Position numbers and translations under genes: made by a program
Assembly (NCBI GenBank): GCA_050633305.1
Contig: JBOEGF010000010.1
Span: forward strand, 736,001-800,000
Origin: Nannocystales bacterium
GTDB lineage: Bacteria > Myxococcota_A > Polyangia > Nannocystales > Nannocystaceae
Reading direction: 5' to 3'
DNA: 64,000 bases
Notes under the pieces: model-generated
Databases searched by the model: none
The model's input: only the letters and a program-made list of their open reading frames with translations
Told to the model about the DNA's origin: nothing
Part shown: piece after piece, positions 47,097-50,251 of the stretch
Position numbering within the stretch: the stretch's first letter is position 1
Layout: each line of letters begins with the position of its first letter

Positions 47097-47127
47097 AAAA
47101 AAAACTCGCCCGGCGTAGCCAGGCGAG
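47097..47127 (-). terminator. Intrinsic terminator closing the CDCL operon
   Basis: Minus strand CTCGCCTGGC-TAC-GCCGGGCGAG followed by T8. Confidence 0.8.
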
Positions 47128-47165
47128 CCTTGGGAGGTCTTCGCTCGCCTAGGCGAGCACAAGCC

Positions 47166-48443
47166 CTACTCGCACTGCACTTCGGGGTAGATCGCCGTGA
47201 GAGACAGGCGCGCAGGCGTGTTGTCCAAGTAGGCGGCCTTGTACGCGATCGGGACACCCGGGGAGTCTGCGGAGTAGTTCCCACCCTGCAGGATGTACTC
47301 GATCATCTGCTCGGGCCCGAGGATGGTTTGCACGGCGTCCTTCGCGTTTCCACCGAGCACGGTGGCCGTGATCTTGGATGCGTTGAGGATCTCCTCGGAG
47401 CCAACGTCAACCTCCACGCCTGCGATGCCGTCCCCAAACGCCGCGTCGATGGCTGCGACCATCACTTCGAGGGTGTCGTTCGACTCGATCGCGAACAGCA
47501 CCCGGCGACCGTAGCTGATCGACTGCAGATACATCGGAGGGTCGCCCACACCCATGAAGAGCTGGGCGTCTTGGACTCCGACAAAGTCTCCGAACATGTC
47601 GGAGGGGCGGGCCGGGGTGTCGAGATCTGCGGTGTAGTAGGTCTGCGTGAAGTCGATGAGGTACTTGTTCGCGAACTCGCCCTCTTCGAAGTCGTACATC
47701 GCGTCGACATCGATGATGCCGGACCAGCTCACGTCGGCCCCGATCTGAAGGGCGAACTGAGACTTGCTGAAGACCCGGTGGATCTCGTAGCTGATCTGTG
47801 CGGCGGTGTTGCCGTTGGTGCCCTCTTGGAGCATCGAGGCTCGCAGGTCACGGAACTCGGAGAGGCTCGGCTCTTCCATCGTGGCCTTCGGCGAGGCGTT
47901 GAGGTTCTCCAAGGAGAGGCTGAACGTTCCGGGGGACCGCTCGAGTCCGATGGGGGAGAGCACGCCTCCGACGATCTCGCCAGCGCGGAGCAGCGCGCCC
48001 GGCCACAGCGCGGGGGAGTCGGGGACGATGGCGATGAACGAGCCGAGTTGCTCGGTCTCCGAGTAGTAGACCTGGTTGCAGGTCAGCTCGCCCTGCGTCC
48101 AGGGGTCGAGACAGTCCATCGTGTCGGGGTCACACGCGATCTGGTGCTTGGCCGCGATCGGGTCGATGGTGAGGTGGCCGAGGCTGAGGATGAACGAGTC
48201 GAGTTCATCGTGGTCGGCCGGATCCGCGCCGCCGCTGGACTCGTCGTCGCCCACCTCGCCGGTGGAGCCCTCGGGCTCCGGGTCATGCTCATCGGTGCCC
48301 GTCGACCCACCTTCCGGGTCGGGCAGGGATGGCCCTGCGCCGGGGAAACTGTTGTTGGCTCCGTCGTCGGCACAGCCTGCCGCGGTCAGAGTGAGGCCGA
48401 GCGCGGCAGTGCAGGTGAGGGCGTGCAGCTTGTTGCGGGTCAT
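47166..48443 (-). CDS. Thiol-activated cytolysin/CDC-like lipoprotein, short form (no domain 4)
   Basis: AAGC lipobox; LWPGALL, FTQTYYT, PMYLQSISYGR, VLGGN, SPGVPIAY; ends QCE. Confidence 0.88.
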   Translation of the reverse strand: MTRNKLHALTCTAALGLTLTAAGCADDGANNSFPGAGPSLPDPEGGSTGTDEHDPEPEGSTGEVGDDESSGGADPADHDELDSFILSLGHLTIDPIAAKHQIACDPDTMDCLDPWTQGELTCNQVYYSETEQLGSFIAIVPDSPALWPGALLRAGEIVGGVLSPIGLERSPGTFSLSLENLNASPKATMEEPSLSEFRDLRASMLQEGTNGNTAAQISYEIHRVFSKSQFALQIGADVSWSGIIDVDAMYDFEEGEFANKYLIDFTQTYYTADLDTPARPSDMFGDFVGVQDAQLFMGVGDPPMYLQSISYGRRVLFAIESNDTLEVMVAAIDAAFGDGIAGVEVDVGSEEILNASKITATVLGGNAKDAVQTILGPEQMIEYILQGGNYSADSPGVPIAYKAAYLDNTPARLSLTAIYPEVQCE

Positions 48444-48487
48444 CGTCGATTCCAATCCGTTCTGTCTTCTGCCGTGATCGGCCGTGC

Positions 48488-50251
48488 TCAGTCGATGCTG
48501 ACTCGAACCGTCACGCCGACGGTTCCTTGGTCAGAAAACTCGAGGTAGTGGTCGCCGGCCCATCCGTTGTCGAGCGTCACGGGGCCGTAGGTTTTGTTGC
48601 CAAAGGTGTCGTCGTCGCAGAACAGGAAGCAGTCGTCATCTTCCCGAAGGCTGCCGCGGATACACAGCTGGTTGTTCTTGAGCGGATCAACCTCGTGGTC
48701 GTAGATCGTCTTGCCGTCGTCGTTGGTGTTGATCCACAGGACCGGCAGCTGCATGCCGTCACCCCCGCGTTCCCAAATCGACTGCCAACCGGGTGCATCG
48801 CTGCGGCAGGGGTCGGCTTCGAGCGGGGGCGCGATCCGGAACTCGATGTTGCCCTTGACTTGAACAGCGCCATCACCGTCGTCGTTGCCGCCGAGGTACT
48901 CCATCTCGGCGACCTTCGCCGACACGTCGATGAAGTTGTCGTAGCACTGCCGCTCTTGGTAGTCGGCGGCGAAGGCCATCTTCACGCCGGTGTTGTCGAG
49001 GTAGGCGAGCTTGTAAGCGATCGGCGCTCCGGGGGAGAGGTTCGAGTACTCGCCCCCTTCGAGGATGTACTCGACCAACCCGTCGAACCCGGTGATGGTC
49101 TTGACCGCTTCGGCGCCCGAGCCACCGATCACCACCGCCTTGAGACGCGTGTTCTCGAGCACCTCTCGGCTGAACGTGTCCACCTGGACGCCACCGCTGA
49201 CCAAGACCGCGTCGAACGATGCGTCGATTGCGGTCCGCAACTCGTACTCGGAGTAGAAGCTCTCGAGGGAGAACAGCACCTTGCGGCCGTAGGTGATCGA
49301 CTGCACGTACATCGGCGGGTTGTCCTCGCCAGTGAAGTGCTCGAGGTCTTCCACGTCCACGCCCTCTTCGAAGAGGTCGGACGGAAGCCCGGGAGTGTCG
49401 ACGTCGATCGTGTAGTAGGCCTGGGTGAAGTCGACGAGGATCTTGGTGCTCTCGACGGTGTTCGAGAAGTCGAACATGCTCGAGAAGCCGTTGCCGAACC
49501 ACTCGACACCTCCGCCGACGGCGACGGCGATCTGGTCGAAGTCGTGCACGCGGTCGACCGAGAACGCGACGTTGGCCGGCGCGCCACCGACGACGTCCTT
49601 GAGGATGTCGTTGCGGTGCTCGCGGAATTCCGACAGCGACGGGCTCTCCATCGTGCGGGCGGGGCTGCCGTTGACGTTTTGCAAGGACACCGAGAACGCC
49701 ATCGACGAGCGGGGAAGGCCGATGGGCGTGAGCTGTCCGAGTTGGGCATCATCGCCGCGTACGACGTTGCCGGGCCAAAGCGTGGCCGAGTTGGGCTGGA
49801 AAGCGATGAAGTCCAGCGCATGCTCGGTTTCGCTGTAGTGGACGTACTCGCACCATTGGTCCTCTTCCTGGCCGTTGGAGCTGCAGGCGAAGTCACAGTT
49901 GGTCTGGGTCTTGGGGACCCAGTCGTCGAGGTCCAGGTGCCCGAGGTCGAACACATACTCACTCAGGTCATCGGACTCGATGCCGGTGCTGTCACCCGAC
50001 TCGTCCCAGCCGTCGGTGTCCGCGTCGGTGTCTGCACCCTCCGAAGCGTCGCCCGGCTCGGTGTCGCCATCGGATGCGCTCCCCAGACCGGGTGCGCCGC
50101 TGCCACGACCCGCGTCCTCGTCACAAGCTGTGCTCGAGAGGGCAAGGGCGAGCAACGCCCCGGCCGCCATCGTTCCGTTGAGCCATCCGTTGATCCGCCC
50201 GTTCATGCAGTTCATGCCGTTCGTGGTCCGAAGTTCAGATTTCCCCGTCAT
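48488..50251 (-). CDS. Thiol-activated cytolysin/CDC-like lipoprotein, long form with about 150-aa C-terminal domain
   Basis: STAC lipobox; LWPGNVV, FTQAYYT, PMYVQSITYGR, VIGGS, SPGAPIAY; start 50251 or 50206. Confidence 0.88.
   Translation of the reverse strand: MTGKSELRTTNGMNCMNGRINGWLNGTMAAGALLALALSSTACDEDAGRGSGAPGLGSASDGDTEPGDASEGADTDADTDGWDESGDSTGIESDDLSEYVFDLGHLDLDDWVPKTQTNCDFACSSNGQEEDQWCEYVHYSETEHALDFIAFQPNSATLWPGNVVRGDDAQLGQLTPIGLPRSSMAFSVSLQNVNGSPARTMESPSLSEFREHRNDILKDVVGGAPANVAFSVDRVHDFDQIAVAVGGGVEWFGNGFSSMFDFSNTVESTKILVDFTQAYYTIDVDTPGLPSDLFEEGVDVEDLEHFTGEDNPPMYVQSITYGRKVLFSLESFYSEYELRTAIDASFDAVLVSGGVQVDTFSREVLENTRLKAVVIGGSGAEAVKTITGFDGLVEYILEGGEYSNLSPGAPIAYKLAYLDNTGVKMAFAADYQERQCYDNFIDVSAKVAEMEYLGGNDDGDGAVQVKGNIEFRIAPPLEADPCRSDAPGWQSIWERGGDGMQLPVLWINTNDDGKTIYDHEVDPLKNNQLCIRGSLREDDDCFLFCDDDTFGNKTYGPVTLDNGWAGDHYLEFSDQGTVGVTVRVSID

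Follow-up and report, generated by a model that had tools for sequence, protein, structure and literature searches.

A long/short pair of cytolysin-type lipoproteins in a Nannocystales bacterium as a candidate two-component pore former

Do two adjacent genes of a myxobacterium encode the two parts of a single pore-forming toxin? The genes lie on the reverse strand of a 64,000-nucleotide stretch of a Nannocystales genome (assembly GCA_050633305.1, contig JBOEGF010000010.1, positions 736,001 to 800,000), here called the window; positions below count from its first letter. Upstream is the long gene and downstream the short gene, both predicted to encode lipoproteins with the core of a cholesterol-dependent cytolysin (CDC). 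Based on their architecture, motifs, adjacency, and codivergence, the pair is probably a two-component pore former resembling the CDC-like (CDCL) pairs of Bacteroidota, in which the long protein would bind and seed and the short protein would polymerize.

Two paralogous lipoproteins with a common core

The first-pass annotation, made from the sequence alone, had described two adjacent paralogous lipoprotein genes, 44 bp apart and closed by a strong terminator. All elements of that observation hold, well beyond chance. The paralogy was borne out by 41% identity across 417 amino acids (E 9e-100). The 44-bp gap applies when the short gene is read from its ATG, and 32 bp remain when it is read from the TTG (Table 1). 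Folding of the terminator RNA gave -40.1 kcal/mol (z -3.74), a value equaled by 0 of 200 shuffled sequences, with U8 after the second hairpin. A terminator is present after the short gene only, a gap of 150 bp separates the long gene from its upstream neighbor, and the long and short genes apparently form one operon. A pattern scan of the locus for sigma-70 promoters and terminators listed no promoter, and it also missed the terminator seen by folding. The GC content over the pair is 0.62 to 0.65, versus 0.67 to 0.70 in the flanks. Public sequencing runs sampled by sequence words included no RNA run for the locus; four runs of DNA or unknown type contained 0.05 to 0.22 of the words.

Both proteins were judged by pattern to carry type II (lipoprotein) signal peptides. 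The lipoboxes were assigned by a PROSITE-type pattern rule rather than by a predictor, and the lipobox cysteine (C43 in the long protein, C28 in the short) does not vary among 50 long and 38 short homologues. Alternative starts of the long gene at ATG 50215, 50206, and 50170 would each still leave a signal peptide. Behind the lipobox, the acidic, disordered linkers of the first reading were recovered in both proteins, where they are also rich in Gly and Ser: the long linker holds 11 D, 5 E, 1 R, and no K (16 acidic residues against 1 basic), and the short linker holds 14 D/E against no K/R. Both were modeled as disordered, with a predicted local distance difference test score (pLDDT) below 50 (aa 39-89 in the long protein). 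In the short protein, the region of signal peptide and linker gave a MYXO-CTERM-family match of 15.7 bits against a cutoff of 105, which was rejected as compositional; neither protein reaches the cutoff of any NCBIfam family.

By sequence profile and structural model, both proteins are members of the CDC superfamily with a D1-D3 core. The Pfam family PF01289 (Thiol_cytolysin) matched the long protein at aa 146-430 with 130.9 bits (E 6.3e-38) and the short protein with 128.3 bits (E 4e-37), against a gathering cutoff of 25. In a sequence search of the PDB, the best matches were pneumolysin and intermedilysin, at 1e-33 with the long protein as query and 1e-30 with the short one, while the short CDCL of Elizabethkingia (8g32) scored 1.7e-26 and 2.9e-22, respectively, and the long CDCL (8g33 and 6xd4) about 1e-20. 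We built AlphaFold (AF2) models from alignments of homologues, with a mean pLDDT of 76.9 for the long protein and 76.4 for the short; values were low only in the signal peptide, the linker, and the hairpin-forming segments. Foldseek matched the models to CDCs at 8e-27 (long) and 4e-24 (short, pneumolysin), and to CDCLs at 1e-18 to 1e-21 (short protein against 8g32, 1e-19). VIA alignments to CDCs such as intermedilysin and pneumolysin began at model residue 91, spanned residues 91-438 or 91-587, and had Z scores of 27 to 29.6; those to CDCLs had Z scores of 24.4 (6xd4), 24.2 (8g33), and 22.8 (8g32). Identity to the Elizabethkingia CDCLs in the structural alignments was only about 22 to 27%.

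The WPG, TQxYYT, S(I)(T/S)YGR, GG, and PIAY motifs of the first reading are present in both proteins and conserved in their homologues. An F/Y-F/Y-Xn-YGR motif and a glycine pair define the wider CDC/CDCL family (Evans 2020, PMC7527733). In the long protein these correspond to YY 279-280, YGR 321-323, and GG 376-377, with Y279, Y280, G322, R323, G376, and G377 invariant in 50 long sequences; in the short protein, Y273, G316, R317, G368, and G369 are invariant in 38 short sequences. The candidate transmembrane hairpin segments (TMH1 and TMH2, about aa 236-268 and 333-368 of the long protein), whose equivalents in CDCs turn into membrane-spanning hairpins, are predicted as helices in the models of both proteins. 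Their residues vary, yet the alternation of hydrophobic and polar positions is kept across 50 long and 38 short homologues. Judged from this alternation and the models, both proteins keep two segments predicted to be able to form amphipathic transmembrane hairpins.

The two proteins part ways at the end of the core. Three N-terminal cysteines and a closing QC had been noted in each, and they correspond to C119, C123, C134, and C436 in the long protein and C108, C115, C126, and C428 in the short, most of them invariant in homologues. The short protein ends 1 residue past C428, while the long protein runs on for 151 residues beyond C436, close to the roughly 150 first estimated. The undecapeptide ECTGLAWEWWR, reported absent at first reading, had no exact or relaxed match in either protein, and neither contains WW.

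The C-terminal domain of the long protein and known relatives

The domain that only the long protein carries (aa 437-587) was modeled as all-beta with a pLDDT of about 90. Pfam offered no family for it at E up to 1 with the whole protein or up to 10 with 11 domain sequences. An 11-member profile of the domain, run against PDB sequences, matched no CDC chain and gave no real match; two antibody chains (E 1.6 to 1.9) were taken as chance. Thus, the CDC D4 family and C2 (PF00168) are excluded for this domain at the sequence level. At the level of fold the domain may still be related to D4, which it overlays in several VIA whole-chain alignments of the model to CDCs. The alignment to the long Elizabethkingia anophelis CDCL stops at residue 438, and the C-terminal domains do not superpose.

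When aligned alone by VIA, the modeled domain matched C2-type domains (Jagged, Serrate, dysferlin, and cPLA2) and Cry37Aa1 with Z scores of 7 to 8.8, within the range of 7 to 9 where VIA matches may show a mere common arrangement. Leads from the protein Atlas were C2-bearing clusters, together with part of a Bacteroidota thiol-cytolysin cluster at a template modeling (TM) score of 0.74. In an alignment of the domain, Asp is invariant at many positions, within motifs that look like loops (LGGND, DDxxG, and WxGDH), and two cysteines, C482 and C530, are conserved. From the model, we infer that the domain may be a C2-like membrane-binding module, possibly Ca2+ dependent.

Of the known systems, the classical CDCs (pneumolysin, intermedilysin, perfringolysin O, and listeriolysin O) give the best core matches and likewise have a beta-sandwich at the D4 position. 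They differ from the present proteins, which have neither the undecapeptide nor a D4-family sequence match, are predicted to be exported as lipoproteins in a Gram-negative host, and include a partner gene without D4. For want of an alignable D4 sequence, no position could be assigned to the Thr-Leu pair of cholesterol recognition. The long proteins also have a conserved set of four cysteines (C119, C123, C134, and C436); classical CDCs are not known to have such a set.

Perforin and the membrane attack complex (MAC) of complement share the superfamily fold; the structure searches gave weak matches to perforin and to other proteins of the MAC/perforin (MACPF) type. Like perforin, the long protein is predicted to end in a C2-like, Asp-rich beta-sandwich (Z 7 to 8.8 to C2 domains), and the MAC shares the idea of seeding and polymerizing subunits. 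Unlike in these systems, the C-terminal domain here has no PF00168 match and the core is of the CDC type rather than the MACPF type.

The first-pass annotation had likened the locus to the CDCL pairs of Bacteroidota (Elizabethkingia anophelis and Bacteroides fragilis; 6xd4, 8g33, 8g32, 9ccp, and 9ccq), and the long/short architecture stands. In both cases adjacent genes encode a four-domain long and a three-domain short protein, both are lipoproteins without the undecapeptide, YY...YGR and GG are kept, and the D1-D3 folds align (Z 22 to 24). The gene order does not agree: long then short here versus short then long on a Chryseobacterium rhizoplanae plasmid, where the sequence record has an operon of a short gene (361 aa), a long gene (511 aa), and then a 199-aa lipoprotein gene. 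The low identity and the C-terminal domains described above also set the present pair apart, no homologue of the third gene was found in the window, and shared descent of the pairs did not hold up (see below).

What is known of such pairs comes from the Bacteroidota. A 2024 survey confined to that phylum describes protease activation, killing of related species, and an immunity lipoprotein, BcdI (PMC11169675). In the pores, about 29 short subunits are nucleated by about one long subunit (PMC11169675, PMC11952106); the 2025 Elizabethkingia account gives a long-to-short stoichiometry of 1:29 and describes assembly with no vertical collapse (PMC11952106). More widely, about 300 CDCLs were counted in at least 10 to 12 phyla, and most of the short forms came from Bacteroides, Chitinophaga, Chryseobacterium, and Elizabethkingia (Evans 2020, PMC7527733). 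A literature search made at the level of listings found no description of such a system in Myxococcota, as the first-pass annotation had supposed.

Distribution, origin, and surroundings of the pair

We surveyed the family in the genus, in the wider phylum, and among one genome per species. The two genes are adjacent in 6 of 6 other genomes of the genus. Genes of this type were present in 10 of the nearest 40 genomes and, patchily within the family, in 9 of 23 other genomes; in a sample of the wider phylum, 13 of 400 other genomes had them, mostly as single genes. The one-genome-per-species scan gave 155 relatives, and our locus counts rest on the best 72 loci. All 72 are in metagenome-assembled genomes (MAGs), labeled as Nannocystaceae, Polyangiaceae, Kofleriaceae, Haliangiales, Myxococcales, and others, plus one from Acidobacteriota. 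By their titles, the MAGs with the closest relatives belong to Nannocystaceae or Myxococcota, in agreement with the myxobacterial setting first proposed. In public annotation, the relatives are named "thiol-activated cytolysin family protein."

A long gene followed by a short gene on the same strand was found at 14 of these 72 loci (one with two pairs), all 14 in Nannocystaceae-like MAGs; 57 of the others have one gene and 1 has two long-type genes. The long-type C-terminal domain was detected by tblastn (E up to 1e-5) at all 14 paired loci and weakly (27% identity) at 2 single-gene loci. We examined 100 family genes, drawn from the 72 loci, other fetched loci, and the window. Sixteen are short, with 0 to 2 residues after the core, while the other 84 have tails of at least 118 residues. 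Compared with 1.84 billion representative proteins, the short protein matched 2,297 clusters at E up to 1e-3; by lengths and match ends, 4 of the best 150 clusters are of the short type. In the protein search, the longest contigs were the same for homologues of the long and of the short protein. Measured against 4 orthologues, dN/dS is 0.08 to 0.21 for the long gene and 0.09 to 0.23 for the short gene, and both genes are under purifying selection of similar strength. A reading of the short gene as a truncated pseudogene was rejected on this ratio, on its 38 homologues of 403 to 430 aa, and on the tail of 0 to 2 residues in 16 of 16 short genes.

Within the genus, two genomes (G002 and G004) have a second pair elsewhere, 46 to 48% identical, and one species (G005:C31, L011/L020) has the whole pair duplicated in tandem as long, short, long, short. 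PF01289 genes number four in the source genome (11.0 Mb in 90 contigs): the two of the pair, a gene standing alone on contig C50, and another on contig C19. The C50 paralogue (G000:C50:3752-4609, locus L015, 582-aa frame) is 34% identical to the long subunit and has orthologues in every genome of the genus; its Asp-rich tail (..LRESDGFLNGDDNLGDH..) echoes the C-terminal motifs of the long protein. The C19 gene (G000:C19:212336-213250, locus L016, 861-aa frame) joins a CDC core to a tail of some 440 aa of Asp/Gly-rich repeats (DGDG..DL) that by eye resemble FG-GAP/VCBS repeats, and a similar 980-aa frame occurs in G423 (L092). Read from its sequence, this tail would give the same pore-forming core another targeting domain. 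An ORF of the window itself (31301-32416, reverse strand, 371 aa) has FG-GAP repeats (E 7e-19), the repeat type suspected in the C19 tail.

Three more distant relatives deserve mention. A metagenomic protein of 1,009 aa (P0236) has two stretches that match the short subunit and may be a fused tandem of CDC cores. A phylum member with a small genome (L089, G368:C199:21135-22202) encodes a protein of 472 aa to which the Pfam CDC model aligns over its whole length (E 8e-77), and the protein's 113-aa tail also has no undecapeptide. In a Polyangia MAG (L042, 2850-5302), two tandem long-type genes with tails of about 140 to 153 aa are sister to the long/short clade in the trees; from sequence, this may be the duplication in its unsplit form.

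We then compared the origin of this pair with that of the Bacteroidota pairs. A FastTree phylogeny was built from the core region of these 100 genes, with a CDC-like gene of a distant phylum member as the root. It placed the 16 short genes in one clade (support 100) and the 16 paired long genes in another (87), as sisters (93). Both clades nest within single genes of the Polyangiaceae type (99), and their internal branching is mirrored. An IQ-TREE phylogeny of 40 rows, which added one Chryseobacterium pair and listeriolysin O, a classical CDC, again recovered the short genes as one clade (99) and the paired long genes as one clade (73), as sisters (92). In this tree the Chryseobacterium short and long genes are sisters of each other (100). 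The best tree with all short genes in one clade was 41.4 log-likelihood units worse and was rejected by the approximately unbiased (AU) test (p-AU 0.0006). This test covers one Bacteroidota pair on a tree with long branches, and it was run after the tree had been seen, with the hypothesis set beforehand. The Chryseobacterium pair groups with itself and a clade of all short genes is rejected; thus, from these trees, the myxobacterial pair seems to have arisen via its own duplication within a myxobacterial clade, separately from the Bacteroidota pairs.

The order of genes around the pair is fixed within the genus: a gene for a 118-aa protein, MurE, a 383-aa lipoprotein, the long gene, the short gene, and a gene for a 248-aa protein. 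The 383-aa lipoprotein keeps its place in 6 genomes of the genus and diverges fast, at 33 to 49% identity versus 71 to 87% for MurE. Its Pfam match to HYDIN/VesB-like Ig domains (E 3.4e-5) is below the cutoff, and from sequence it is possibly an accessory gene. This gene and that of the 248-aa protein are missing beside the second pairs and beside the pairs of other genera. Farther out, cell-wall genes flank the locus on both sides (window 35972-53091), scattered and on both strands.

Table 1. Features of the long/short locus, followed by neighboring genes (window coordinates)
Feature	Position	Strand	Remarks
Long gene	48488..50251	-	587 aa from ATG 50251, stop included; from ORF and translation
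Long signal peptide and putative lipobox	50123..50251	-	..ALSSTA-C43; read from sequence
Long acidic Gly/Ser-rich linker	49982..50122	-	aa 44 to ~90; from composition and predicted disorder
Long D1-D3 core	48944..49981	-	aa 91-436; from VIA matches, invariant columns, and hydrophobic/polar alternation
Long C-terminal domain	48491..48943	-	151-aa predicted beta-sandwich in D4 position; from model and invariant columns
Intergenic spacer, long/short	48456..48487	-	32 bp to TTG; 44 bp (48444-48487) to ATG
Short gene	47166..48455	-	TTG start at 48455 gives 429 aa, ATG start at 48443 gives 425 aa; stop included
Parts of the short protein			putative lipobox (..LTAAG-C28); acidic linker aa 29 to ~80; D1-D3 core aa ~81-429
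Intrinsic terminator	47097..47165	-	pair of GC-rich hairpins, with U8 after the second; directly 3' of the short gene
Upstream 383-aa lipoprotein	50402..51553	-	Pro/Thr/Asp-rich linker, weak Ig-like match, C-terminal domain without assignment
murE	51580-53091	-	
Ser/Thr kinase with TPR repeats	43421-46303	+	with the toxin pair, between the cell-wall genes
murF-like	41404-42840	+	
mraY	39335-40708	-	
murD-like	38001-39422	-	
ftsW	35972-37333	-	

How the pair may act, and what else it could be

As a two-component pore former, the pair would act in the following way. Both proteins would be exported as lipoproteins and anchored to the outer membrane or to vesicles by an acidic, flexible tether of about 45 residues; cleavage within the tether would probably free them. 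The long protein would bind the target membrane via its C-terminal Asp-rich, C2-like beta-sandwich and seed an oligomer. The short protein, having no binding domain of its own, would add onto this seed, and its two amphipathic hairpins would give most of the beta-barrel. A role in predation, delivery on vesicles, and activation by a protease, as the first-pass annotation suggested in part, may apply; the predatory habit of the host is itself assumed from its family. Bacterial prey, competitors, or eukaryotic microbes may be the target.

Several observations weigh against this reading. The cores score nearer to the classical CDCs than to the Elizabethkingia CDCLs, which are the proven two-part toxins, and the pair is not homologous to the Bacteroidota pairs as a pair, so their mechanism is not simply transferable. 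The C2 likeness of the C-terminal domain is weak.

Two further points concern activation and immunity. In Elizabethkingia, the activation loops have 25 and 50 residues (PMC11952106). The equivalent loop here, between the first and second D2 strands (long 117-131, short 107-123), has 15 to 17 residues with 2 or 3 conserved cysteines, and alignments of 50 long and 38 short sequences revealed no conserved Arg/Lys activation site in it. A lysine upstream of the loop, K114, is part of a strand and is kept in at least 90% of long homologues. Activation, if any, probably differs from that of the CDCLs. For immunity, we looked for a gene common to all pair loci and found none in the ORF lists of four loci, a search limited by the noise of high-GC ORFs. 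The 199-aa third gene of the Chryseobacterium operon had no match in the window at E better than 1.7, with BcdI itself not the query. Because the neighbors are not kept beside other pairs and the third gene has no counterpart, no immunity candidate was found to travel with the pair.

The long protein itself raises the strongest alternative. It retains every motif and looks complete, like the single-gene relatives that presumably act alone, and so may not need the short protein. The two could then be independent toxins, or the long protein could be self-sufficient while the short one acts otherwise or as a capping, decoy, or self-protecting modulator. Single genes with a C-terminal domain do prevail, both among the 72 related loci and in the sampled phylum genomes, and since no separate immunity gene was found, the short paralogue could serve as immunity. 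However, the short protein keeps YGR, GG, and both amphipathic hairpins under purifying selection, which a cap or decoy would not need, and action on its own is hard to picture for a protein with no membrane-binding domain. Strict adjacency and codivergence across about 45% sequence divergence point to a joint function, and the known precedent of this architecture is cooperative (PMC11169675). We hold this alternative to be rather unlikely.

It is improbable that the proteins are no weapons at all and instead remodel the producer's own membranes (in vesicle formation, developmental lysis, or material exchange): their predicted place as lipoproteins of the producer's envelope, the location among envelope genes (murE, murF-like, mraY, murD, and ftsW), and the lack of a recognized immunity gene would fit, but every characterized family member among the matches is, by molecule name, a lytic toxin, the second pairs lie in unrelated surroundings so that the mur link is not general, and the patchy presence in the family (9/23) and phylum (13/400) fits an accessory weapon better than a housekeeping function.

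Returning to the two-component pore former, a bolder version is possible, and we put it forward as speculative. Here, the Nannocystaceae lineage itself would have invented a complement-like, two-part pore former by duplicating a CDC-type gene and losing the binding domain in one copy; the long protein would aim the pore via a perforin-like, Ca2+-binding C2-type domain in place of a cholesterol-binding D4, and the toxin would kill prey or grazers. If true, the MAC principle would have converged three times, in animals, Bacteroidota, and Myxococcota.

All carriers found are uncultured MAGs, and the proteins would therefore need recombinant production. With a core nearer to the classical CDCs and a C-terminal domain of its own, the pair could help define the residues behind seed dependence and the ligand of a non-cholesterol D4. 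It is also a candidate protein weapon in bacteria better known for their small-molecule antibiotics. So far, the only two-part CDC-like toxins to have been worked out are those of Bacteroidota, which serve as antibacterial weapons and assemble in a complement-like way. If such a toxin had a second origin in another phylum, a targeting seed combined with a polymerizer that has no binding domain would be a recurrent evolutionary solution.

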